DNA of 64,000 bases, taken from the NCBI GenBank assembly GCA_902576605.1, contig CACGVI010000003.1, positions 919 through 64,918 of the forward strand. The letters are read 5' to 3'. Shown one piece after another: positions 9,222-59,856 of this stretch. Under the pieces are notes generated by a model. The model was not told the origin of the DNA, searched no databases, and was given only the letters and a program-made list of their open reading frames with translations. The stretch comes from an uncultured Candidatus Actinomarina sp. (GTDB lineage: Bacteria; Actinomycetota; Acidimicrobiia; Actinomarinales; Actinomarinaceae). A program made the translations under genes and the position numbers. The stretch's first letter is position 1. Each line of letters begins with the position of its first letter.

Positions 9222-10804
9222 CTTGGTACAACTACTATTTGACCCTCTGAGATATTTCCTTTTACTTCAACAAAGCCATCAGTAAATACTCCTATTTCAA
9301 CAGCAACATAACTTGTATCAACACCAGATTCTCCTTCAAATGTTCCAGAATCAAGAACTCCATCATAAACTTCTAAAGCATATCCACCTTCTGCTAAAGC
9401 GAGAAGAGCATTCACTGGAACATAAAGAACATTTTCTGAAATCTCAGTTGTAACAAACACCTTTACAGGAGCTTGATCGTAAGCCTCAATCTCCTCAGGG
9501 TTCAGAACTTCAAGTGTTACCTCAATAAACTCTCCTGCTTGAGTTTGTGTTACAACTTGGTCTATAAAAGTGATAACTGTTGGGACTCTCTCGTCTGTCG
9601 GAAGTTCTATCTCAACACTATCACCAAGAGATACTGTTTCCTGATCGGTTGCGTCAACTTGGAAGACAACTTCAATTCCAATAGAAGAAATATTGTAAAG
9701 TGGTGAGTTTAATACGACCGCGGAACCAACATCATTAATATAAGAACCAACAATAATTGGTGTTTTTGATGCATATGCATTTGTTGGGCTAAAAGTTTCT
9801 GACTTTGAAGCAAGCTCTAGTTCTTCCAACTCTTCTTTTGCTTTTTCTAATTCAGCTGCTTGGTCAACACCTTCATTGTAACTTTTTAAGGCATCATCAA
9901 ATGCTTTTTGAGCTGTCTCAATAGCTAAGGCTTCTGTTGCATCAATTCCAGATTCCTTGCCTTTTTCTAAATCTTTAATTCTTTTTTGTTTTTCAATCTC
10001 ATCTCTAAGATCCTGGATTTCAGAGTCACGAGTATCATTTTCTATTTTTTCTTTTGTTTGTGGATTTGAGTCATCTTGAAGTAATGAAATACTTTGTTCG
10101 GCATTTTTAATTGCTTCATCAGCTGCAATCCATGCTGCGCTTTCTTCAGTAGCAGCTTCTTTTGCATCATCTAACTTTTTCTTTTTGTCGTTGACTTGTG
10201 CCAAAGTAGTTCCACCATCTGAGATTGTCTCTTCAATATTTTCAACTTCGGTCTTTTTTAAATTTATAGCAACCTGCTCTGCTGGCGTAATTTCAGATTT
10301 TGTATCAATGCTGTAATCAATATAAAGAGCATTAAGCATATTTGAAGTAGTTTCATCAAAAGTTTCATCTGGTGTAAACTCATCTGGTGTGTAGCCCAAA
10401 AACACAAGTGCTTGCTCAAGTTGCAAAACATCAGGGCCAGGGTCAGAGTTCAAATCTAAAGTTCTATAAAATGGTGTCGCCCCTTCAACTAAAATTACAG
10501 GTTTATTATCAATAGCAAAGAGTACTTCTCCAAAATTTATGATTGTTCCCTCTTTAGGTACAAAGGTCACAACTCCTGACATTGGTGAGTTGAGCACCTT
10601 GCTATCGGTCTGCCTTAATGTTCCGTTGTATTCTTCTTTTTTTTCTAGATCACCCTTTTGTATAGCAACAGTAGTAAGTTCTAGAGTTTTATTGCTTGAG
10701 GATGTGTCTGTGTTCTGGGTTCCAAAATAATAGCCGCCGAATCCCAATGCAGCTAAAGCAATTAAAGTCAGTAAGTTTCTTAATTTAAATATATTTTTCA
10801 TCAT
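9218..10804 (-). CDS. Membrane-anchored periplasmic-adaptor (HlyD/MFP-like) protein with a peptidoglycan-binding-like segment and a long coiled coil
   Basis: N-terminal TM anchor, a lipoyl-like hairpin (GVVTFVPKEGTIINFGEVLF), a PG_binding_1-like stretch (GPDVLQLEQALVFLGY), about 200 aa of K/E-rich coiled coil, and a C-terminal beta-barrel-like region. Overlaps the ATPase gene by 4 nt. Confidence 0.7.
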   Translation of the reverse strand: MMKNIFKLRNLLTLIALAALGFGGYYFGTQNTDTSSSNKTLELTTVAIQKGDLEKKEEYNGTLRQTDSKVLNSPMSGVVTFVPKEGTIINFGEVLFAIDNKPVILVEGATPFYRTLDLNSDPGPDVLQLEQALVFLGYTPDEFTPDETFDETTSNMLNALYIDYSIDTKSEITPAEQVAINLKKTEVENIEETISDGGTTLAQVNDKKKKLDDAKEAATEESAAWIAADEAIKNAEQSISLLQDDSNPQTKEKIENDTRDSEIQDLRDEIEKQKRIKDLEKGKESGIDATEALAIETAQKAFDDALKSYNEGVDQAAELEKAKEELEELELASKSETFSPTNAYASKTPIIVGSYINDVGSAVVLNSPLYNISSIGIEVVFQVDATDQETVSLGDSVEIELPTDERVPTVITFIDQVVTQTQAGEFIEVTLEVLNPEEIEAYDQAPVKVFVTTEISENVLYVPVNALLALAEGGYALEVYDGVLDSGTFEGESGVDTSYVAVEIGVFTDGFVEVKGNISEGQIVVVPR

Positions 10805-16668: not shown

Positions 16669-16744
16669 AATTTCCTTTCTTACCTTGAGAAAATGTACGA
16701 AATTTTAGAAACTTCATTCCTTCTCTCGAGGATTGTTGTCTTAT

Positions 16745-16830
16745 AAATATTGAAGGCGACCTGACTTATCTTTCGAATCACAGTTGCGGGACAGTGTTAG
16801 GTTTTCACTAACTTCGCTTCAGTATTCTTT
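16745..16830 (-). promoter_or_regulatory. Cobalamin (B12) riboswitch, compact/variant type
   Basis: The minus strand reads GAAGCGAAGUUAGUGAAAACCUAACACUGUCCCGCAACUGUGAUUCGAAAGAUAAGUCAGGUCGCCUUC. The core GUGAAAAxC...CxGUCCCGCxACUGUGA and the B12-box-like AGUCAGGUCGCC align with the cobalamin riboswitch consensus. P1 is GAAGCG/CGCCUUC. Confidence 0.7.
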
Positions 16831-16845
16831 TAAGATGTTAGCAGA

Positions 16846-43853: not shown

Positions 43854-44879
43854 TTGAAAAACAATAAGTTATTTAAATTTGGCGTGATTGCACTTTCAAT
43901 AGTGCTTGTTGCTTGCGCCGGAGGTAGTTCAGATGAAGCTGGCTGTCCGGTAATAGAAGATAGAAAAATTAATGTTGTAGCAACGACTCCTATGATTGGT
44001 GAATTTGTTAGCCAAGTAGGTGGTGACAATATAAACCTTACTGTCATTATGCCACCTGAAGCAGATCCACACACTTATGAACCAGCCCCTCAGGATGCTG
44101 GAACTATTGCGGATGCTGATTTAGTTTTTTACACAGGGTTGAAATATGAACCGGCAGCAGTTATTAAATTGCTTGAAAGCTCAGCATGTAGTACAGATGT
44201 TTTAGCTGAAGTTGGTGAAAACGTATATCCTATTGAATTTAAAGAAGGTGGACATGACGACCATGGAGATCATGGTGAAGAAGGTCACGATGATCATGAT
44301 GACGAAGAAGGCCATGATGATCATGACGGACATGAAGGGCACGGCCACGGAGCATACGATCCACACTTCTGGTTTGACCCAAATAGAGTTGCATATGGAG
44401 CTGAATATATTGAAGGCAAATTAGTAGAATTTGATCCAAGCAATGCTGCAAGCTATGAGTCAGCTGGAAGTGCTTATACAGATGAGTTAAAAAGTCTAAT
44501 AGGTCAGGTATCTGACTTAATATCTACAGTTCCGTCTCAAAACAGGAAGCTTATAACAACTCACGAATCGTTGGGATATTTAGAAGCTAAATTTGGACTT
44601 CAGGTGTTATCAACAATAATTCCAAGTCTTGATTCAGCTAATGAAATATCTCCTTCACAACTTGTTGATGTAATTGATGTAATTGAAGACAATAGTGTGA
44701 AAGTTATCTTCATTGAAGCAGAGGCACCTTCTGTGTATGCGGAAACAATTGTTGCAGAAACTGGGATAAAAGCAGTAGAAGGATTATGGGTTGAAACCTT
44801 AAAAGAAGGTCAATCCTACCCTGAGTTTTTATTAGATGCTGTTAAATTAATTGTGGAGAACCTAAGAAATACTGACTAG
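43854..44879 (+). CDS. znuA: Zinc ABC transporter substrate-binding lipoprotein (ZnuA-like, cluster A-I) with a His/Asp/Glu-rich loop
   Basis: Lipobox LVAC. Metal-ligand blocks DPHTYEP and DPHFWFDP. A 33-residue loop HDDHGDHGEEGHDDHDDEEGHDDHDGHEGHGHG (nt about 44253-44351) is typical of zinc-specific ZnuA. Confidence 0.85.
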   Translation: MKNNKLFKFGVIALSIVLVACAGGSSDEAGCPVIEDRKINVVATTPMIGEFVSQVGGDNINLTVIMPPEADPHTYEPAPQDAGTIADADLVFYTGLKYEPAAVIKLLESSACSTDVLAEVGENVYPIEFKEGGHDDHGDHGEEGHDDHDDEEGHDDHDGHEGHGHGAYDPHFWFDPNRVAYGAEYIEGKLVEFDPSNAASYESAGSAYTDELKSLIGQVSDLISTVPSQNRKLITTHESLGYLEAKFGLQVLSTIIPSLDSANEISPSQLVDVIDVIEDNSVKVIFIEAEAPSVYAETIVAETGIKAVEGLWVETLKEGQSYPEFLLDAVKLIVENLRNTD

Positions 44880-46565: not shown

Positions 46566-47045
46566 ATGACTGAAGAAACTTACTCTATTTGGCTTCAAAA
46601 TTCAGTACATAATAAAAAGATTCATAATCTTATCAAAAGATATGCAAGTGAAGAAAACAAAGACTCTTTCTCTCCCCACGTAACACTTGTTTCCAATATC
46701 AATTCAAAAGAAAATGCACTTAAAATTTTGCAAAAACTATCAGACAACAAGTCTTCAATTGTTTTTGATAAAGTTTCTACAGGAGATACTTACTTTCAAA
46801 AGCTATACCTCGAATCATCAGATAATACTTATTTTTTTAACTATGTTTCAAAAATAGAAGGTTGGCCAAGTCTTTGGGTACCCCATTTGTCATTGTGTTA
46901 CGGGGATGAGTTACCTAAATCTTTCGACTTAGGGGAGCTTAATAAACTCATCCCTATAACACTCACTTTTGACACTATTACTGTTTACAAAACAGGCCCT
47001 AAAGTGTCAGAGTGGAAGGAGATAACCACTCTTCTTCTGGATTGA
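46566..47045 (+). CDS. 2H-phosphoesterase superfamily protein (cyclic phosphodiesterase / LigT-like)
   Basis: Two HxT/S motifs at the expected spacing: SPHVTLVS and VPHLSLCYG. Confidence 0.6.
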   Translation: MTEETYSIWLQNSVHNKKIHNLIKRYASEENKDSFSPHVTLVSNINSKENALKILQKLSDNKSSIVFDKVSTGDTYFQKLYLESSDNTYFFNYVSKIEGWPSLWVPHLSLCYGDELPKSFDLGELNKLIPITLTFDTITVYKTGPKVSEWKEITTLLLD

Positions 47046-47074: not shown

Positions 47075-49315
47075 CTAAACAATTGCAAAACTTTCATTTG
47101 AAAAATCTATTGATAAGCTTTGTGATGTAGATATTATTGAAAAATTATTTTCACCAATACCAAGAATTGCTGGAATTCTATGTTCAGCACACCTTATTGC
47201 CATGTGAGAGTTGGGACCTCCATACTGGGTAATCAATGATTTGATTTTATAATTAAAAATCCAATCCCATCCTGGGTCTGCTGCTGGAATAACTACTATC
47301 TTATTATCAAGGTCGTAAGGTTGATTTGAATGATGGTCAAGTAGCAAAATTTCTCCAGAAACTGTTCCTTGTCCAATGTAATTTCCTTCTTTGCTCATTT
47401 CCTCATATAAATAAAAATCATCGGATGACGAGATTAAGTCAGGCATTAATGTGTTTTTAAGATCTAAATTAATTGTATTTTCTTGGTTAAATTCAATATT
47501 TAGTCTTTGAAAAAGTTCTTCGTCGCTTATATTTTGCTCCTCTATTTCATTTAAAATACCATCAATTCCTTTCGTATAGTAAAATTTTGAATTCTCTCTT
47601 GTTGCAATAGCATTCTGAAACATCTCAATCCACGATGATGCTGTGTATGGAATATTGTTAAATTTAAAATACTTATCAATATTTGAAAATATAGCTTTTT
47701 GCAATGAAACATTTTCATCATGTATTTCACTATTTTGAATCAACAGCTCAGTGAACTCTAAATTATTTCTTAAATTAGATGAAGATAAATTATAGTTACC
47801 GGCCCTAATGTGTCCATAAATGTCTAAAAAGCTATTAAGACTTTCTTTTCCAATTTTGACTTGATAAGCGTCCGCCTTCATTTTCGTACTTATCGACTTT
47901 ACTGACAACAATAACGAGTTTTTATGTGCTTCGGAGATTACTTCTTTTCTCAAAAGATTATTTAACTGAGCAAAATACACAAACCCCAATCTTGAATGAT
48001 GCGTAAATGGCAATGCCATATTGTCTCTAATAAATTTTATATTTTCTTTTTTAGAGTATTCATAATTTCCATCAAGCAAAGAGAATGCTTTCAACATAGT
48101 TTTATTGTTTTTTTCTAGAGTCGATTTGTTAAAGCTATCAATATGAATTAAATCTTGATGCCATTTCTCAATCTCTTCTGGGCTAATAATTTTTCTATAT
48201 TCATTTGCGAACTCATCTTCAGAATCAAACACATATGACGATCGAGAGATATTAAATTCAATTGAATCGTGTAAATGTGGGTTCTCTTTCAATTTATCTA
48301 ATTGATGTTGTATTATTTTTTCGCAAGTATCGACTTGTAAGCTTCGAGTTAAAAAACTATTTAAACTATGGTTCACATTTATGTAGGGTACATTATTGAA
48401 AAGCTCCATTAATTTAGCCGGTTTATATTTTCTATAACCAAATTCACCGCGCTGTATATTCCATGTTGAGTCTGTAAACATAAATTTATATAAGCCAAAT
48501 GCAACATTGTCAGGTTTTTTTCCAATCATTTCGGCTGGATTCATGTCTGACATATTGCTAAAAAGGTGATTTATACCAAAACGATCATCCGTAGTATCTT
48601 TTAAAGCCTCATATTTTTTTATATTCTGCTCAATTATTTTTTTCTCTGTAAAGATCAAATCCTTATCAACTTTCCTTTCCATCAGAGGCCGTACTTGCAA
48701 AAGCAGTGGAGAAGAATTGTTATTTAAAACCATTTCAATGTCTAAATGTTTGTTCCCAAATAAATCTTCTAATTTTGTCAGAATATTTAGATATATAGAA
48801 TATTCATCATATTTTTTTGGTAACTTGTTTATTGATCTATGAACATAAAAATTTTTAATCTGATTGTACTTTCCAGATGTAACAGCATCAGTTTCTGGCC
48901 CATTATAAATTGAAAATGATCTGTAAAGAGAGTCTGTCCCAACCTTAAAAGATGTAAGCACAGATACACTTCTTGCGTTTTTTACATAATCTTGCAAAAT
49001 CACGGTCTGATTAACATCTTTTTCGTAGCTATTTAACACTTGATTCCATGATTTTTTAATATCATTTATTCTTTTCTTGCTAATTGGTCCGATGGAAAGA
49101 TATTTACCTGCATTAGAAGAGCTCTCTAAGTCTTCATTAGAACTATTGCTTCTAATCATTATTTCTTCTGAAAAATCATTAAGAATCTCGTTAATATTTT
49201 CTAAATCTTTCAAAGAAAGCTCTCTAAAGTATGGAATTTCTATATCCGTATGGTTTGCCACAAACTCTAGGTTTTTAGCTTTATTACCATAATTTATTTG
49301 ATCATCCATTTTCAT
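47075..49315 (-). CDS. PEP-utilising-enzyme family phosphotransferase: PPDK_N ATP-grasp domain, about 380 aa unknown central region, then a swivel phosphohistidine domain with no C-terminal PEP/pyruvate TIM barrel
   Basis: N-terminus YGNKAKNLEFV, IMIRSNSSNEDLESSSNAGKYLS, HLDIEMVL...LLLQVRPL (PPDK_N blocks). C-terminus VVIPAADPGWDWIF...LITQYGGPNSHMAIRCAEHRIPAILGIG (mobile His domain). The protein ends about 45 aa after the catalytic His. The start ATG abuts the trpB2 stop (TAGATG). Confidence 0.75.
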   Translation of the reverse strand: MKMDDQINYGNKAKNLEFVANHTDIEIPYFRELSLKDLENINEILNDFSEEIMIRSNSSNEDLESSSNAGKYLSIGPISKKRINDIKKSWNQVLNSYEKDVNQTVILQDYVKNARSVSVLTSFKVGTDSLYRSFSIYNGPETDAVTSGKYNQIKNFYVHRSINKLPKKYDEYSIYLNILTKLEDLFGNKHLDIEMVLNNNSSPLLLQVRPLMERKVDKDLIFTEKKIIEQNIKKYEALKDTTDDRFGINHLFSNMSDMNPAEMIGKKPDNVAFGLYKFMFTDSTWNIQRGEFGYRKYKPAKLMELFNNVPYINVNHSLNSFLTRSLQVDTCEKIIQHQLDKLKENPHLHDSIEFNISRSSYVFDSEDEFANEYRKIISPEEIEKWHQDLIHIDSFNKSTLEKNNKTMLKAFSLLDGNYEYSKKENIKFIRDNMALPFTHHSRLGFVYFAQLNNLLRKEVISEAHKNSLLLSVKSISTKMKADAYQVKIGKESLNSFLDIYGHIRAGNYNLSSSNLRNNLEFTELLIQNSEIHDENVSLQKAIFSNIDKYFKFNNIPYTASSWIEMFQNAIATRENSKFYYTKGIDGILNEIEEQNISDEELFQRLNIEFNQENTINLDLKNTLMPDLISSSDDFYLYEEMSKEGNYIGQGTVSGEILLLDHHSNQPYDLDNKIVVIPAADPGWDWIFNYKIKSLITQYGGPNSHMAIRCAEHRIPAILGIGENNFSIISTSQSLSIDFSNESFAIV

Positions 49316-50671
49316 CTATTTGTTTACTGACTCCAAAGCTACTTGAACTTTTTCAGACGGAAATTCGTAGTCAACCATCTCCCCACTCAAAAAGTTTTCA
49401 TAAGCTTTCATATCAAAGTGACCATGTCCACACATTGCTGTCAATACGGCAATACTTTCAGAATTTTGGTCGGCATCTTTCACTGCCCTAATTGCTGACG
49501 CAATTGCATGAGTTGCTTCTGGAGCAGGTATTATGCCTTCTGTCTTAGCAAATAGTTGACCAGCCTCAAAACATTCTTTTTGGCCTATTGCTTCTGCTTC
49601 AATTAATTTTTCTTCATACATTGCGCTGACTAGTGGTGCCATTCCGTGGTATCTTAAACCACCTGCATGAATTGGATCAGGCACAAAAGAATGACCAAGG
49701 GTATGCATTTTGACTACGGGGGCCATTCCTACTGAATCCCCAAAATCATATGCATACGTTCCCTTAGTCAAAGATGGACAAGCCTGTGGTTCAACAGCTC
49801 GTATAACTGTAGATTTGTTATTTTGAATATTTTCTCTAGCAAAAGGTGTAAAAAGACCAGCAAAATTCGAACCACCACCAGTGCAACCAACTATCACATC
49901 TGGATAATCGTCTGCCAATGCCAATTGTTTTAGTGCTTCCTCTCCAATAATGGTTTGATGCATTAGAACATGGTTCAAAACACTTCCAAGTGCGTACCGT
50001 GTTTTCTCATCTTTAGCAGCAACTTCAATTGCTTCTGAAATGGCAATGCCTAGACTTCCTGGAGTTTCAGGGTCCTCGGAAAGAAACTTTTTACCAATAT
50101 CTGTTCTTTCAGAGGGGCTTGAGTATACCTTTGCGCCGTATATCTCCATCATCGTTTTTCTATAAGGTTTTGCTAAGTATGATGCAGCTACTTGAAACAC
50201 CTCTAACTCAATTCCAAAAGCCTGGCATGCAAAAGCCAAAGCAGAGCCCCATTGGCCAGCACCTGTTTCAGTAACCATTTTTGTAACACCTTCTTCCGCG
50301 TTATAAAACGCTTGGGGGATTGCAGTGTTAGGTTTATGAGAGCCAGATGGTGATCCACCTTCATATTTGTAATAGATTCTTGATTTTGTACCTAGAGCTT
50401 TCTCAAGTCGAACTGCTCTAAATAAAGGAGAAGGTCTATAAAGCTTATATAAATCTAGGACAGGCTTTGGTATATCTATAAAAGAATCTTGAGACACTTC
50501 TTGTAAAATCAATCCCATTGGAAATAAAGGAGCTAAATCCTCCGGACCAATTGGCTCCATTGTTTGCGGGTTCAATGGTGGTGGTAATGGATTTGGTAAA
50601 TCCGGGATTATGTTATACCACTGTGTCGGCATCTCAGATTCTGATAGTAAAAATTTATATTGCTTGCTCAT
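49316..50671 (-). CDS. trpB: TrpB2-type (TrpB-like) PLP-dependent tryptophan synthase beta-chain homolog
   Basis: 451 aa (the long TrpB2 form). PLP-lysine block YYKYEGGSPSGSHKPNTAIPQ, ETGAGQWGSALA, GCTGGGSNFAGL. GGAGG SD 4 nt upstream. No other trp genes are nearby. Confidence 0.85.
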   Translation of the reverse strand: MSKQYKFLLSESEMPTQWYNIIPDLPNPLPPPLNPQTMEPIGPEDLAPLFPMGLILQEVSQDSFIDIPKPVLDLYKLYRPSPLFRAVRLEKALGTKSRIYYKYEGGSPSGSHKPNTAIPQAFYNAEEGVTKMVTETGAGQWGSALAFACQAFGIELEVFQVAASYLAKPYRKTMMEIYGAKVYSSPSERTDIGKKFLSEDPETPGSLGIAISEAIEVAAKDEKTRYALGSVLNHVLMHQTIIGEEALKQLALADDYPDVIVGCTGGGSNFAGLFTPFARENIQNNKSTVIRAVEPQACPSLTKGTYAYDFGDSVGMAPVVKMHTLGHSFVPDPIHAGGLRYHGMAPLVSAMYEEKLIEAEAIGQKECFEAGQLFAKTEGIIPAPEATHAIASAIRAVKDADQNSESIAVLTAMCGHGHFDMKAYENFLSGEMVDYEFPSEKVQVALESVNK

Positions 50672-50686: not shown

Positions 50687-50712
50687 AAAAAAACCGGGCT
50701 GTGCCCGGCTTT
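50687..50712 (-). terminator. Intrinsic terminator (attenuator) in the trpB2 leader
   Basis: Minus strand: AAAGCCGGGC-ACA-GCCCGGUUU, where the final UUU is the start of a 7-nt U run that extends the stem. It ends 6 nt before the trpB2 SD. Confidence 0.7.
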
Positions 50713-50736
50713 AGAAAACAACATAGAACTAGGCAC

Positions 50737-50781
50737 CTACATATGTAGCGTCCACCAGTTCCAGTTTGTTACTTTATACAT
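50737..50781 (-). CDS. Trp-rich leader peptide (14 aa, MYKVTNWNWWTLHM)
   Basis: ATG TAT AAA GTA ACA AAC TGG AAC TGG TGG ACG CTA CAT ATG TAG, read by hand on the minus strand. It has three UGG codons and is followed by the antiterminator/terminator pair upstream of trpB2. Confidence 0.6.
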   Translation of the reverse strand: MYKVTNWNWWTLHM

Positions 50782-50788
50782 TGTTATT

Positions 50789-50816
50789 AATGTAGATGTT
50801 TTTAATAAAATTTCAA
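50789..50816 (-). promoter_or_regulatory. Candidate promoter giving a leaderless transcript for the trp leader peptide
   Basis: TTGAAA (50816-50811), a 16-nt spacer, TACATT (50794-50789), then 7 nt to the leader ATG. No SD is present. Confidence 0.35.
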
Positions 50817-55760: not shown

Positions 55761-56330
55761 ATGAAAAAATTTTTTACTCAACCAATTGGCGAGTTTTCTA
55801 GACAAAATTCATTAGTATTTTTGGTTGTAAACATTGTAGCCTTAGCTGCAAACTTTGAACTATTTAATGTAGACCCAGTAGAGAACTTGATAAATTTTCT
55901 TTGGGGATTTTCACTTTTCGGTATCGTAACTTCGGGCTATTACTTGGCAGAGGGCTATGTTCCAGAATATTGGAAAACAGCAGGTGGTGTCTTGGCTTCC
56001 GTTATATTAGTTGGAACATTTCTTGAAATGACACCTGAGTACCAAGAAACTGGTTTTTTACCTATGTATTTTTTCTGGGCCCTCAACCAATTAATTTACG
56101 GAGCTGTTCTTAGGGGTAATGGAATAGTACGCCCAGTTTTTGAAAATCTAACAATCTTAGGATCACTAATAATTGTTATTGGAACTGGTTCTGATTTATT
56201 TGGGTATGAACTTCCAGAGACACTTGATATTTTATTTTTAATCGGCTGGGTCTCTCTGATTACAGGATTAAGTTTTGGAAACTACTTTGCTTGGGGAGAC
56301 AAACTAGCATCTAGCGAAGGGGTTGAATAA
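55761..56330 (+). CDS. Cluster gene 1: six-TM membrane protein, unknown function
   Basis: 189 aa with six hydrophobic segments. First gene of a tightly packed 7-gene operon. Confidence 0.55.
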   Translation: MKKFFTQPIGEFSRQNSLVFLVVNIVALAANFELFNVDPVENLINFLWGFSLFGIVTSGYYLAEGYVPEYWKTAGGVLASVILVGTFLEMTPEYQETGFLPMYFFWALNQLIYGAVLRGNGIVRPVFENLTILGSLIIVIGTGSDLFGYELPETLDILFLIGWVSLITGLSFGNYFAWGDKLASSEGVE

Positions 56331-56332
56331 TC

Positions 56333-56656
56333 ATGTCAATTACTAACTCAAGAGAATTTACCATCAATGTTGGGAAAATTGCTGAAGCAGAAAAGTGGCT
56401 TTCTGAAGGAGCAGATTTATGGAAAGAAATTACAGGCAAAGATGCTGTAATTTACAAAGAAGGCTGGGGAGACCAGTACAAGATGTTATTTGTAACTACA
56501 TATGAATCAATGGGAGAGACTGAAGAAGTCGGAGAAAAAGTTATGACCGACAAGAGAGTAACCGATTGGTTTGAATATGGAATGACAAATGGTGATTTAA
56601 TTTCCGGTGCTGTTGATAGATTTTTTACAACCATAAAAGACACAAGAGAAGATTAA
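56333..56656 (+). CDS. Cluster gene 2: 107 aa soluble protein, probable single ferredoxin-like (dimeric alpha+beta barrel, ABM-type) domain
   Basis: Starts 2 nt after the gene 1 stop. Length and alternating pattern (FTINVGK...KMLFVTTYESMGE...) fit a beta-alpha-beta-beta-alpha-beta barrel. The fold call is an inference. Confidence 0.5.
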   Translation: MSITNSREFTINVGKIAEAEKWLSEGADLWKEITGKDAVIYKEGWGDQYKMLFVTTYESMGETEEVGEKVMTDKRVTDWFEYGMTNGDLISGAVDRFFTTIKDTRED

Positions 56657-56672
56657 AAGGAAAGAGAATATT

Positions 56673-57314
56673 ATGTATGTAAGACTTGGATTAGCAAATC
56701 CAAAAGAAGGTATGACAGAAGAGGCACTCAATTATTTTAGAGATGTAGCTATACCAGTATACGACCAAGTAAGTGGACTATTAGGAGCTGCTGCGTGTAT
56801 TAATAATGAAGGACAACTGATGGCTTGGACAACATGGGCTAATAATGATGCAAAAGAAGCAGCAATGTCTGAATTCCAGCAAAATCTTGCTGGGTTAGCC
56901 GATTATCTAGCTGAACCCCCAACTATATTTGAAGGACCAATGGTTGCTGGGCAGCAATATATTATGGTTCCAAAAGATGGTGAAAACCCATTTTTTGCAC
57001 GATTTGTACTTGGCGGCGGAACTCAAGAAGGTAAAACATATGATGATATTGCTGAGTTTATGACAAATACTGTTTATCCAGCGTATGAAAATGTTGAAGG
57101 TATATTTGCTACAGCAGCTTGTAAAGTAGATGACAACAGTGGGTTTAGTTTCAATTTTTGGACTAGCCATGATGCTGCACACGCAGCATCTGATGTAATC
57201 TCAAACGTCGTTCAAGATGCAGTAGCAAATTTAATAAAAGAAGCTCCGAAAGAGCTAACTGGAGAATGCAATGTATGGAAGAATTATGTTGACTTTCCAG
57301 TAGGAAAAATATAG
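56673..57314 (+). CDS. Cluster gene 3: tandem ABM-like (two ferredoxin-like barrel) protein
   Basis: Internal duplication: MYVRLGL...LMAWTTWANNDAKEAAMSEF and FFARFVL...SFNFWTSHDAAHAAS. The W-x-S/T-x-x-A/D-x-x-x-H pattern is ABM-like. Confidence 0.55.
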   Translation: MYVRLGLANPKEGMTEEALNYFRDVAIPVYDQVSGLLGAAACINNEGQLMAWTTWANNDAKEAAMSEFQQNLAGLADYLAEPPTIFEGPMVAGQQYIMVPKDGENPFFARFVLGGGTQEGKTYDDIAEFMTNTVYPAYENVEGIFATAACKVDDNSGFSFNFWTSHDAAHAASDVISNVVQDAVANLIKEAPKELTGECNVWKNYVDFPVGKI

Positions 57315-57324
57315 AAAGGAAATT

Positions 57325-57945
57325 ATGTTAAGTAATAAAGAGGTAAAAATAGGTTCAAGTATGGCAAGAATATTTGCATTTGCAGTTATTCCAAACTTTT
57401 TAATCCAAGCTTTTGCACTTGATCCAGCAAATCCTAATTATGATGCAACATGGGGTCCGGTAATTTCGGTACTCAATGTTGTAACTGGATTTGCTTTGTT
57501 ATTTGTATTTGCACTAACAACAAAGTTGTTTGGAGACGATAACAACCCATATGTAAGAATTACAGGATCTATTGCATTTGTTACGCAATGTATCTTTGTG
57601 CAAGACGCTTTTGCAGGACCATTAAATGAAAACAATAGTGATGCATTGTTTACAACAACAGAAATTTTGCAAACAACTGGAACCAACGGTCCGGTTTGGG
57701 CATTATTTTTAGGCATTTTTACACTATCAGTTTTAAGAAGTAGTAAAGTTAACCTTCTTCCAAGCTGGGGTGTAGGTGCTGGGTATGGCGCTGCAATACT
57801 GGTTACGGTTAATGGGGTAGGCGGAGCATTTGGACTTATTCCAGACGCAGCTAACTTGATTGTTTTAGTTTTAGGAGGAGTAATACTCTATCCCGCAACT
57901 GTGTGGGCTCTTGGGGTCTCTTTCCAAAACTCAGGAGGTGAATAA
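57325..57945 (+). CDS. Cluster gene 4: six-TM membrane protein (paralog of gene 5)
   Basis: Shares blocks with 57948..58556: NFLIQ(A/V)F(A/V)L(D/G)P...Y(D/N)(A/E)TWGPVI, LPSWG, and (I/F)PDAA. Confidence 0.55.
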   Translation: MLSNKEVKIGSSMARIFAFAVIPNFLIQAFALDPANPNYDATWGPVISVLNVVTGFALLFVFALTTKLFGDDNNPYVRITGSIAFVTQCIFVQDAFAGPLNENNSDALFTTTEILQTTGTNGPVWALFLGIFTLSVLRSSKVNLLPSWGVGAGYGAAILVTVNGVGGAFGLIPDAANLIVLVLGGVILYPATVWALGVSFQNSGGE

Positions 57946-57947
57946 TA

Positions 57948-58556
57948 TTGATAACTTCTGAAGAAAAAGAGCTTGGAAGAAGATTTGCATTAGGTGCGCT
58001 GGTATTTCTTCTAGCAAACTTTCTTATCCAAGTTTTCGTATTAGGTCCAGAAGCATCGGGCTATAACGAAACATGGGGTCCAGTAATCGGATTAATAAGC
58101 GCTTTGCAGCTAATGGCTGGAATGGGTGTTATTAGGCTGTCAGGAAAGCTTTTAGATGACAAGGATAAACCATTACTGACTGGATCAATTGGCTTAGGCT
58201 ATACGGTCTCAGCTGTAGGACTAGTAATGTCTCTAGTTCCAGCAGCAATTCATAATGCGTTTACAACCACTGCTTTATCGGCTGATATGGCTGCTGACCT
58301 TGTATTTTATGTAACGCCAGCAGTATTTTTGTTTATAGCTCCTTTTAATATACAATTTGCAAAATATGGTAAAAGTATTTTACCTTCATGGGGACCTGCA
58401 GTTGGTAATGCAGTTGGATACGGAATAATAGCAGTGACCGCTGTTTTCTTATCTGGACTGTTTCCTGATGCGGCATTTATTCCATTGCAAGTCGTCTTAG
58501 GAGTAGTATTGTCACCAGTTTGGTTCTTTGCAATATCTAAGGCATTTTCAAACTAA
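57948..58556 (+). CDS. Cluster gene 5: six-TM membrane protein (paralog of gene 4)
   Basis: TTG start 9 nt after AGGAGG. Conserved blocks as for gene 4. Confidence 0.55.
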   Translation: MITSEEKELGRRFALGALVFLLANFLIQVFVLGPEASGYNETWGPVIGLISALQLMAGMGVIRLSGKLLDDKDKPLLTGSIGLGYTVSAVGLVMSLVPAAIHNAFTTTALSADMAADLVFYVTPAVFLFIAPFNIQFAKYGKSILPSWGPAVGNAVGYGIIAVTAVFLSGLFPDAAFIPLQVVLGVVLSPVWFFAISKAFSN

Positions 58557-59201
58557 ATGTACGCAGTAGCGGTAACTATTTTATTCCAGGATGGAAAGCT
58601 TGGAGAGCTCAAAGACTTTTTTGAAAATTCAGGCTTTCCCGCTCTAGAAAAACTAAAAGGAGATATGTATTCAATTGCGTTCTTTAATCCAAAAGATAAT
58701 GTAAATCTAGGTATTGCGTTTATGAAGGATAAAGAAACTGCAGAAAAATTTGCTGAAATCAGAAATGAAAATTTATTGCAAATAAAAGACATTCTCACAA
58801 GTTTCCCAAGGGTTTATGAAGGAGAGTTAATCACTGGGAAAACTTTGCAAGACTCAGTAGTTGATAATCCCCTAGATTCATTGTTTTTAGCATTTGCAAT
58901 ATTAGATGTAAAAAATGTTGATGAGTATATGGATGTTCAAAAAGAAATTTATTTACCAAAGCTAGAACAAGACGAGGGCATTATTTCCTATGGAGCTTTT
59001 AAATCTGCAGAAAATACACTCGTTTTGTTTGAATTTTGGACTTCTCATGATGCAAAGCACAGTTTTGATGAAAAACTTAATGCTGATGAAAATATATACG
59101 AAAAATTCATGCCATTGATGGAAGGGTTCAAGGATTATTATGGTGAGCCTTATGCAATTAGGCAATTTACCGACTTTAAAGCAGGGAACTCAATTAATTA
59201 A
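58557..59201 (+). CDS. Cluster gene 6: tandem ABM-like protein (paralog of genes 3 and 7)
   Basis: The start abuts the gene 5 stop (TAAATG). Begins with MY. The second domain carries LFEFWTSHDAKHSF. Ends ...FTDF like its paralogs. Confidence 0.55.
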   Translation: MYAVAVTILFQDGKLGELKDFFENSGFPALEKLKGDMYSIAFFNPKDNVNLGIAFMKDKETAEKFAEIRNENLLQIKDILTSFPRVYEGELITGKTLQDSVVDNPLDSLFLAFAILDVKNVDEYMDVQKEIYLPKLEQDEGIISYGAFKSAENTLVLFEFWTSHDAKHSFDEKLNADENIYEKFMPLMEGFKDYYGEPYAIRQFTDFKAGNSIN

Positions 59202-59220
59202 GATAAATAGAAAGGAAATT

Positions 59221-59856
59221 ATGTACTTTAGAATAACGATTCCATCTCTTCAGGATGGAAAAAAAGACGAAGCCATATCTTTTGTTAAAGATAAAGTGAT
59301 GCCAGAGTTTGATGGCACACCTGGACTTCTAACGATGATGGCAGCTATTACAAGTGAGACCTCTGGAGTCAATTTGGCTGCTTATGAAAGTAAAGAAACT
59401 GTAGAAGCTCTAGAAGAAAAAATACAAGGAGTATTATCAGAAGCAGCTGGAATGATGGCAGCACCTCCTGTAATTTATCAAGGAGATGCAGTTTATGGTA
59501 AGGTCTACCAGACCATGGCTAAAGAGAGTACAAGACCAAGCTACTTAAGATTGGTTGTTGGTGTTGCAAAAGACACAGATGCAGTCTTAAGTTTTCTCAA
59601 AGAAAAAGTAGAACCGATTTATGAAGAGTCAGAAGGCCTTCAAGTAACTGGAGCTATTTTTGATGGAAGCAGCGCAATTAGCTGGAACTTCTGGGATTCC
59701 GAAGAGGACATGAACGCAGCTGTTGAAAAACTACAAGCAGCATTGGACAGCGAATCAGAGTCCGAACTGTTTGACGGAAGTACAGTAGCTTATATGGGAC
59801 CTGTGTATGCAGGTAAGTTATTTATTGATTTCAATGAAGGAGATACTCCAACATAA
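59221..59856 (+). CDS. Cluster gene 7: tandem ABM-like protein (paralog of genes 3 and 6)
   Basis: I prefer ATG 59221, preceded by ATAGAAAGGAAATT (the same 14 nt also precede the gene 4 ATG). Contains MYFRITIP..., PPVIYQGD and ISWNFWDSEEDMNAAVEKL. The 59140 ORF-track start overlaps gene 6. Confidence 0.55.
   Translation: MYFRITIPSLQDGKKDEAISFVKDKVMPEFDGTPGLLTMMAAITSETSGVNLAAYESKETVEALEEKIQGVLSEAAGMMAAPPVIYQGDAVYGKVYQTMAKESTRPSYLRLVVGVAKDTDAVLSFLKEKVEPIYEESEGLQVTGAIFDGSSAISWNFWDSEEDMNAAVEKLQAALDSESESELFDGSTVAYMGPVYAGKLFIDFNEGDTPT

Follow-up and report, generated by a model that had tools for sequence, protein, structure and literature searches.

What does a predicted tryptophan (Trp) attenuator control in a bacterium that is described as unable to make Trp? 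The question is raised by a 64-kb stretch of DNA from an uncultured Candidatus Actinomarina (contig CACGVI010000003.1, positions 919 to 64,918; "the window" in what follows), in which a Trp-codon leader precedes a gene for a TrpB2-type enzyme, trpB2, and an abutting second gene, here called X, for a protein with the architecture of a phosphohistidine phosphotransferase. Few free-living marine bacteria are as abundant or as small as Candidatus Actinomarina, which has been described as uniformly auxotrophic for Trp; the closest genome match of the stretch, at 97% identity, is a single-cell genome of Candidatus Actinomarina. The reading that we favour, with a probability of roughly 0.6, is that in a Trp auxotroph the locus combines a Trp-attenuated TrpB2 with a diverged relative of the L-glutamine kinases, which would phosphorylate a new acceptor to the benefit of the cell when charging of tRNA-Trp falls. 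An initial annotation of the stretch had interpreted the two genes as a possible Trp salvage module; this interpretation is supported in part, and the retention of X under the Trp attenuator by selection proved to be better founded than was apparent at that stage.

The elements of the locus follow one another on the minus strand in the order leader peptide open reading frame (ORF), intrinsic terminator, trpB2 and X:

50789 to 50816, minus strand: promoter-like -35/-10 pair (TTGAAA, 16-nt spacer, TACATT) directly 5' of the leader ORF, from a consensus scan (9 of 12 matches)
50737 to 50781, minus strand: leader peptide ORF MYKVTNWNWWTLHM followed by a stop, 14 codons, from reading of the sequence, with three Trp codons at 50763-50761 and 50757-50752
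50731 to 50736, minus strand: attenuator segment 2 (GUGCCU), for which folds show two alternative partners, the Trp-codon segment (1:2) and segment 3 (antiterminator)
50690 to 50712, minus strand: GC-rich intrinsic terminator AAAGCCGGGCACAGCCCGGTTTT of 10 pairs, with a T-run to about 50681, from a terminator scan
49316 to 50671, minus strand: trpB2, an ORF of 451 aa
47075 to 49315, minus strand: gene X, the second gene, an ORF of 746 aa

The coordinates of both ORFs and their contiguous junction are exactly as initially annotated: in aaaTAGATGaaaatg the TAG stop of trpB2 directly abuts the ATG start of X (TAGATG). With a gap of 0–7 nt between them, both genes lie behind one Trp-codon leader, and the leader ORF, the terminator and the narrow gap bear out the earlier placement of both genes under a Trp attenuator. 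The position of the promoter-like element is suggestive only, as the region contains 18 promoter-like matches against 18.3 expected from shuffles; at this level the scan says nothing for or against a promoter inside trpB2 that would serve X.

The leader ORF is the sole W-rich mini-ORF within the window, and the W-N-W-W leader with its attenuator element is kept in 19 related Actinomarina loci. The fold z-score of the attenuator region is -4.1; the 1:2 hairpin between the Trp-codon segment and segment 2 has a computed energy of -20 kcal/mol, and the terminator hairpin, which is kept in all leader-bearing loci, one of -14.8 kcal/mol. When folded alone, segments 2 and 3 form a 6-bp antiterminator helix of about -10 kcal/mol between GUGCCU and its partner GGGCAC at 50706-50701, which occupies the top of the 5' arm and the loop of the terminator, and a 6-bp 2:3 helix of about this energy is present in all leader variants. 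The first pair of this helix is G-C in clade A of the X tree (described below), which includes the window, C-G in clade B1 and C.C in clade B2. As the 3' partner is a base in the terminator loop, this two-sided base change speaks for the 2:3 helix, whose reality appears plausible from these sequence comparisons, if not proven. A search of the leader against Rfam matched no described RNA family. Classical Trp attenuators are known in Actinobacteria, including one 5' of a trpS gene in Streptomyces (PMC1262725).

Some relatives carry an additional element in the same region, namely a spacer of about 55 nt located 3' of the terminator (L002, 4585-4637, and the same region of L001, L004, L006 and L007). 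These loci have leaders of the MKN(V/I)TSWNWW type, and a CUCC in the spacer can pair with the Shine-Dalgarno GGAG, which could add control at the level of translation to that by attenuation. This spacer is missing from the window and from the loci closest to it.

That the leader matters to X itself is indicated by 32 informative, non-redundant Actinomarina loci, which show three arrangements:

21 of 32 loci: leader, trpB2 and X
4 of 32 loci: leader and X, without trpB2
7 of 32 loci (clade C): X elsewhere, 3' of a gene for a small membrane protein; leader and trpB2 are both missing from the locus

The tree of X resolves into three clades, A, B and C. All loci of clade A carry trpB2 save one, L102; within clade B, the loci that keep only the leader form a monophyletic subclade, B1, and trpB2 is present in the other subclade. 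The breakpoints differ between the two deletions: in B1 the ribosome-binding site (RBS) region of trpB2 is fused to that of X, whereas in L102 (2440-2470) the trpB2 RBS is kept and is followed by a remnant ORF of 7 codons (start, KEQIRH, stop; TTG AAA GAA CAG ATC AGG CAT TAA) that abuts the start of X and, as judged from its position, preserves translational coupling to X. Hence trpB2 was deleted at least twice independently, and both times the leader, the RBS and X were retained. Within B1, the X genes of L001 and L106 are 13% diverged at third codon positions, whereas the roughly 235 nt of promoter, leader, terminator and spacer differ at 3 positions. The far better conservation of the leader relative to the silent sites of X implies that the attenuator is under selection in loci where X is the only gene that it controls, and on this comparative evidence we regard X as a genuine Trp-attenuated gene. 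X itself has codon-position identities of 0.94, 0.98 and 0.87 for positions 1, 2 and 3, a pattern of purifying selection by which a pseudogene was rejected.

It might be argued that X has nothing to do with Trp and merely uses the nearest promoter, the attenuator being leaky enough to permit this. In favour of this, operons are long and promoters scarce in streamlined genomes (PMC7771536), X of clade C stands without a leader, and the X family shows no link to Trp outside Actinomarina. Such a passive association is nevertheless decidedly unlikely given the conservation of leader, terminator and RBS after the loss of trpB2, with 3 differences in about 235 nt against 13% at the silent sites, and the second, independent deletion, which again kept the coupling, by way of the remnant ORF.

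The same loci speak on the relation between the two genes. As trpB2 was lost while X stayed, the two do not form an obligate pair, and the notion of an obligate module within the genus has to be given up, because trpB2 was lost at least twice with X kept and clade C has X elsewhere. Outside Actinomarina, trpB2 was found within 6-7 kb of X homologs at none of 74 genome loci and none of about 50 metagenome loci. The initial annotation had itself named a want of conservation of the pairing in other genomes among the outcomes that would count against its two-gene salvage module, and by this test the pairing is not conserved. A metagenome contig (L101, PYIJ01226194.1, 37-3631) has an X 90% identical and an adjacent trpB2 98% identical to those of the window; these mixed identities point to a recombinant of two clade-A types, and thus to a locus that exchanges alleles within the population.

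The identification of the first gene as trpB2 is secure. Its product scores 705 bits against NF009057 ("TrpB-like PLP enzyme", PLP being pyridoxal phosphate; cutoff 366) and 607 bits against TIGR01415 (cutoff 519), and among solved structures it is closest to those of Sulfolobus TrpB2 (6hul, 4qys and 6hte), which match over the full length with E-values of 1e-109 to 1e-127. The initial naming of the gene is confirmed by the NF009057 score and these structures. A Shine-Dalgarno sequence, GGAGG, is located at 50680-50676. The PLP-binding lysine K113 (GSHKPN) and R340 (GGLRYHG) are identical to those in the aligned Sulfolobus TrpB2 sequences. This Arg reportedly takes the place that Asp305, which binds serine, has in TrpB1, and contacts the phosphate group of O-phosphoserine.

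How does this gene accord with the described auxotrophy? The Actinomarinales are described order-wide as auxotrophs for Arg, His and Trp, and the Trp pathway is reported to be absent from every Actinomarina genome (PMC7771536; bioRxiv 10.64898/2026.04.03.716425), in keeping with the remark of the initial annotation that the window holds no other trp genes. In the preprint's table TrpB was scored via K01696 alone, with 0 of 84 genomes positive (bioRxiv 10.64898/2026.04.03.716425). As K01696 was the only entry in this Trp screen, TrpB2-type genes would have escaped it. K06001, which we take to be the KEGG number covering TrpB2-type proteins, is not among the entries of that table. The supplements of the two studies contain no entries for K06001, K01007 or K00860 (PMC7771536; bioRxiv 10.64898/2026.04.03.716425).

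A possible function for X follows directly from the properties of TrpB2. The initial annotation referred to a preference of TrpB2 enzymes for O-phospho-L-serine, and the literature reports dependence on it (Busch 2014, as cited in PMC11917138). X might then be an ATP-dependent L-serine kinase that supplies TrpB2 with O-phospho-L-serine, which would make the locus a self-contained module for conversion of indole to Trp. The GGLRYHG motif that the window protein has in common with solved Sulfolobus TrpB2, the 0–7 nt between the genes behind one attenuator, and the position of X clearly outside the glutamine-kinase equivalog (see below) are consistent with this proposal, as is the main text of the preprint, which calls serC absent (bioRxiv 10.64898/2026.04.03.716425). 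The supplementary table of the same preprint conflicts with its main text, in that it lists serA (K00058) and serC (K00831) in 84 of 84 genomes each and serB (K01079) in 0 of 84. Should the table be correct, the cells make their own O-phosphoserine and need no serine kinase for it. Moreover, X is kept with a selected leader in lineages without trpB2 at the locus, and also in clade C with neither gene nor leader beside it; trpB2 is never near the X family outside Actinomarina; and at four sites where the relatives that phosphorylate amino acids conserve a charged residue X has a neutral one, which would be unexpected for an α-amino-acid acceptor. The serine-kinase proposal of the initial annotation is thus weakened by the distribution of serA and serC and by the persistence of X without trpB2, and we consider it unlikely.

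What, then, is X? Its product has three domains:

48671 to 49315, minus strand: residues 1-215, ATP-grasp (PPDK_N-like) nucleotide-binding domain, from a weak PPDK_N match, Foldseek and relatives
47396 to 48670, minus strand: residues 216-640, mostly helical central (acceptor-binding) domain, from AlphaFold2 (AF2) models, Foldseek and divergence analysis
47075 to 47395, minus strand: residues 641-746 and the stop, phosphohistidine swivel domain, from PF00391 and PDB sequence matches

The PPDK_N match of X itself is sub-threshold (18.5 bits against 27), and the ATP-grasp assignment follows from significant PPDK_N matches in its relatives together with Foldseek matches of the N-terminal domain to the ATP-binding domain of rifampin phosphotransferase (RPH), to D-Ala-D-Ala ligases and to succinyl-CoA synthetase beta; the family-invariant residues R55, S56, E61 and D62 are situated in this domain. 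Most of the replacements specific to the lineage fall in the central domain, as do the family motifs. The swivel domain is recognised by PF00391 at residues 671-738 (E 6e-13) and contains the motif GGPNSHMAIRCAEHRIPAILGIG with the catalytic His704 (codon at 47206-47204), the protein ending 42 residues further on. No Pfam or NCBIfam match to the phosphoenolpyruvate (PEP)/pyruvate TIM-barrel family was found in X, and PEP synthase was rejected as a candidate on account of the missing barrel. The initially annotated architecture is borne out as regards the swivel histidine, the want of a barrel and the position of the C-terminus; the PPDK_N domain that it included is the part that falls below threshold in X itself.

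The AF2 model of the whole protein (predicted local distance difference test, pLDDT, 79; predicted TM-score, pTM, 0.73) has RPH as its best PDB match in Foldseek, with an E-value of 1.7e-18 over about 870 aligned columns. Modelled alone (pLDDT 80, pTM 0.80), the central domain again has RPH as its sole structural neighbour, and this match is weak (E 0.016, probability 0.99, TMq 0.39). The alignments for these models were built on Actinomarina and Campylobacterota sequences; a profile search with a diverse alignment, intended to deepen the X alignment, returned nearly only Actinomarina. The domain order that the initial annotation had likened to RPH is accordingly the order of the best whole-protein match, with the central domain being the weak part of the correspondence. 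A sequence search of the PDB matched the swivel domain alone (RPH best, and also PEP synthase), and neither this search nor the structural one found a solved structure for the family of X.

Since the best structural match is an antibiotic-inactivating phosphotransferase, X could be envisaged as a resistance-type kinase that inactivates a Trp antimetabolite or an inhibitor of tryptophanyl-tRNA synthetase (TrpRS), the drop in charging inducing both X and TrpB2. A Trp-codon leader reports charging and not Trp itself, and the auxiliary TrpRS of Streptomyces is induced by indolmycin. Attenuators upstream of trpS occur in Streptomyces (PMC1262725), and a resistance function would also account for X keeping the leader without trpB2. 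This proposal is wholly inferential, and clade C has X without the leader. We know of no marine compound of this kind. At the sequence level X resembles RPH in the swivel domain only, and it is from this domain that X draws its 16.9 bits against the rifamycin-inactivating phosphotransferase model NF041857 (cutoff 999); the likeness to RPH is architectural, and an antibiotic substrate is not implied by the data. We hold such a resistance role to be very improbable.

The family affiliation of X is more informative. X matches NCBIfam NF004508 (PRK05849, "hypothetical protein") with an E-value of 4e-148, and a 779-aa protein of C. jejuni, P0301, scores 1172 bits against the same model. The P0301 gene lies in a cluster after kpsS, kpsC and genes for an APS-kinase-like protein (170 aa), an NTP_transferase (253 aa) and a GATase (200 aa), and is followed on its 3' side by two methyltransferases and DUF2972. 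This order is that of the cj1413c-cj1421c capsule segment, which identifies P0301 as Cj1418, the L-glutamine kinase (EC 2.7.3.13). The catalytic His of Cj1418 is reportedly residue 737, according to work of the Raushel laboratory, and the alignment of P0301 likewise places the catalytic His at 737. X aligns with P0301 from end to end (28% identity, E 4e-78), with His704 opposite His737, so that by sequence X is a full-length homolog of the Cj1418 family. This is the family that the initial label, PEP-synthase/rifampicin-phosphotransferase-like, had not recognised, sound as that label was with respect to architecture. Together, Cj1415-Cj1418 convert Gln, ATP and CTP to CDP-phosphoramidate 3'-phosphate (PMC11800397; PMC6429109).

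At E<=1e-3 the X family includes 2397 representatives, which fall into two length classes of about 780 aa and about 1000 aa; proteins of the longer class have an N-terminal nucleotidyltransferase-like extension. Roughly one in two family members carries the extension (L083-L100 and many of L009-L082), which Pfam does not recognise; in the nearest relatives of X it looks degenerate, yet these keep a separate NTP_transferase gene, and Actinomarina X has lost it. Among 74 distant genome loci from many phyla, with 25-32% identity to X, an NTP_transferase gene is near the kinase gene in 50, a Peptidase_C26/GATase gene (about 210 aa and mostly immediately downstream of the kinase) in 39 and an APS-kinase-like gene in 25; other common neighbours code for methyltransferases, glycerophosphotransferase, epimerase and DegT aminotransferase. 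The closest relatives outside Actinomarina (37-47% identity, about 946 aa) are from marine contigs of 25-28% GC, and the kinase-GATase-NTP_transferase core is present in all close outgroup loci.

From this background Actinomarina X departs in several ways. X of the window scores 494.8 bits against NF004508 and other Actinomarina X proteins 483 and 489, below the equivalog cutoff of 501, which the closest outgroup (L099) passes with 521 bits. Homologs of the GATase (Cj1417), nucleotidyltransferase (Cj1416) and APS-kinase (Cj1415) were found neither in the window nor in any Actinomarina flank. Actinomarina X is thus set apart from the Cj1418 equivalog on two counts, score and gene context. When 32 Actinomarina sequences are set beside 81 canonical family members, X proves to retain 96 family-conserved positions, among them R55, S56, E61, D62 and the His of GGxNSHMAIR. 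At 23 sites, each conserved to at least 85% across the family, Actinomarina has fixed another residue. The replacements in the central domain include W258M, D313N, R315N, K351S, P505A, T507N, D509N and Y515L, and many of the 23 alter signature motifs, with DWNPAE turned into DMNPAE (W258M), YIDVR into YINVN (D313N, R315N), LHDKIEF into LHDSIEF (K351S) and GHLRPGTYDI into GHIRAGNYNL. Two acidic and two basic residues are lost among them (D313, R315, K351 and D509), which we read as the signature of a remodelled acceptor site.

Could X nonetheless still be an L-glutamine kinase for an envelope phosphoramidate, with its partners encoded elsewhere and the Trp leader a by-product of the site where trpB2 landed? 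The full-length homology to Cj1418, the 96 conserved positions with the catalytic His, a shortfall of just 6-18 bits from the equivalog cutoff and the leaderless X of clade C would fit, and the Actinomarinales have a variable envelope-polysaccharide island (PMC7771536). Set against this, the GATase and nucleotidyltransferase genes that accompany the kinase in 39 and 50 of the 74 distant loci and in all close outgroups are missing from the window and the Actinomarina flanks, motif residues conserved at 95-99% are replaced (W258M in DWNPAE and K351S in LHDKIEF), and strong conservation of the leader extends to loci in which X is its only target. An unchanged glutamine kinase is, in our estimate, quite unlikely.

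Taken together, these observations are best accommodated by the reading given at the outset, in which a Trp-attenuated TrpB2 is accompanied by a glutamine-kinase relative with a new acceptor. From the anatomy of the leader, scarcity of charged tRNA-Trp would cause ribosomes to stall at the W-N-W-W codons, and segment 2, thereby released, would base-pair with the loop and the 5' arm of the terminator; with the terminator blocked, transcription would continue into trpB2 and the abutting X. TrpB2, going by its family, would convert scavenged indole and O-phosphoserine (or serine) to Trp, a one-step bypass of the auxotrophy. In X, by analogy with the glutamine kinase and RPH, the ATP-grasp domain would load His704 from ATP, and the swivel domain would then hand the phosphate on to an acceptor bound by the helical central domain, yielding AMP, Pi and a phosphorylated product. 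The loss of the pathway partners and the remodelling of conserved central residues suggest that X has moved from phosphoglutamine to another small molecule: it would no longer make phosphoglutamine for surface-sugar phosphoramidate and would instead phosphorylate a compound whose product is useful when charging of tRNA-Trp falls, acting beside TrpB2 where this is present without depending on it.

X therefore probably has a new Trp-related job. As for the acceptor, a Trp-related compound is a reasonable possibility at somewhat less than even odds; the want of any Trp link is a lesser one, L-serine and L-glutamine are each unlikely, and a Trp antimetabolite or TrpRS inhibitor is highly unlikely. 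More specifically, we tentatively suggest, with the odds against us, that X is a glutamine-kinase descendant that gained a new activity and was taken into a regulon responding to tRNA-Trp charging, either for a salvage substrate or for inactivation of an antimetabolite. In the first variant X might make a phosphorylated substrate, be it O-phosphoserine for TrpB2 or another precursor; in the other it might phosphorylate a natural Trp antimetabolite.

Several points weigh against the favoured reading. With the Trp codons masked, the minimum-free-energy fold retains the terminator and does not switch to the antiterminator, so that antitermination relies on a short helix and on kinetics. The seven loci of clade C have X without leader or trpB2, from which it follows that the function of X is not strictly Trp-specific, and all 23 replacements are common to clade C and must be older than the Trp linkage or independent of it. 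The changes at D313, R315, K351 and D509 could reflect two lost salt bridges and not ligand contacts. Finally, the partner genes of the phosphoramidate pathway could be present elsewhere in the genome, for instance in the envelope glycan island described earlier (PMC7771536).

Other features of these loci may be noted. A gene for a CPDase-like 2H phosphoesterase (46566-47045, plus strand; PF07823, E 1e-9) is convergent with X at 29 nt from the X stop, and neighbours X in all clade A and B loci and not in clade C. In clade C the gene that converges on X is one for a Cys/Met-metabolism PLP enzyme, seen in L005, where a SAM-I/IV riboswitch (10605-10697, minus strand; 74.8 bits) is located 5' of it. 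Elsewhere in the window there is an adenosylcobalamin (AdoCbl, B12) riboswitch at 16706-16839 on the minus strand (57.8 bits against a gathering score of 50), 5' of a minus-strand gene cluster. A ZnuA-type metal-binding lipoprotein encoded at 43854-44879 (plus strand) has a long His/Asp/Glu-rich insert (HDDHGDHGEEGHDDHDDEEGHDDHDGHEGHGHG), and its gene adjoins ABC-3 and ATPase genes and that of a Fur-family regulator. Six successive same-strand ORFs of about 190-240 aa at 55761-59856 (plus strand) are without a Pfam match at E<=1e-5 and may constitute a lineage-specific gene family or cluster.

The presence of trpB2 behind a Trp attenuator adds to the published picture of Actinomarina and revises the "absolute" Trp auxotrophy of an abundant ocean bacterium, as many populations carry a TrpB2 that is predicted to be induced by Trp starvation and could convert scavenged indole to Trp. 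The gain and loss of trpB2 between close relatives suggests that indole may be a traded public good for Actinomarina. The glutamine-kinase family is, to our knowledge, known only from surface-sugar phosphoramidate pathways. A member under an amino-acid attenuator, with no partners nearby and a remodelled central domain, is a candidate for a new phosphotransferase activity; if this is true, evolution would have put a kinase of capsule decoration to use in the amino-acid economy of the cell. It also calls for caution in extending the glutamine-kinase label to the whole PRK05849 family.

Compared with known systems, the leader resembles those of the E. coli trpL type and the leaders of actinobacterial trp and trpS genes in its short ORF with tandem UGG codons, its predicted alternative 1:2, 2:3 and 3:4 pairings and its GC-rich terminator with a U-run. 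Unlike the classical Trp leaders, it is predicted to govern a salvage gene and a kinase gene in a host without a trp operon, its putative antiterminator is only 6 bp long, and some Actinomarina relatives have an extra hairpin over the Shine-Dalgarno sequence. TrpB2 of the window is, like the stand-alone TrpB2 enzymes of Sulfolobus and Thermotoga (Busch et al. 2014; Hettwer and Sterner 2002), a clear NF009057 member, and has GSHK and GGLRYHG in common with solved Sulfolobus TrpB2. It differs in that its host is, by the published auxotrophy, without other Trp biosynthesis genes, and in that its gene is attenuator-controlled, patchy within the genus and followed by a kinase gene. With PEP synthase and pyruvate phosphate dikinase X shares the ATP-grasp and phosphohistidine swivel domains; it is without their PEP/pyruvate TIM barrel, has its His domain at the C-terminus and not in the centre, and matches them significantly only in the swivel domain. 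The order of ATP-grasp, helical substrate-binding domain and C-terminal swivel His is that of RPH-Lm (PDB 5HV1, 5FBS), from which X differs in its low identity of about 15% and its remote central domain (TMq 0.39). Cj1418 has the same three domains as X in the same order, with the catalytic His in GGxNSHMAIR; besides the differences in score, neighbours and conserved residues given above, X is distinguished from it by a position under a Trp attenuator, usually 3' of trpB2.

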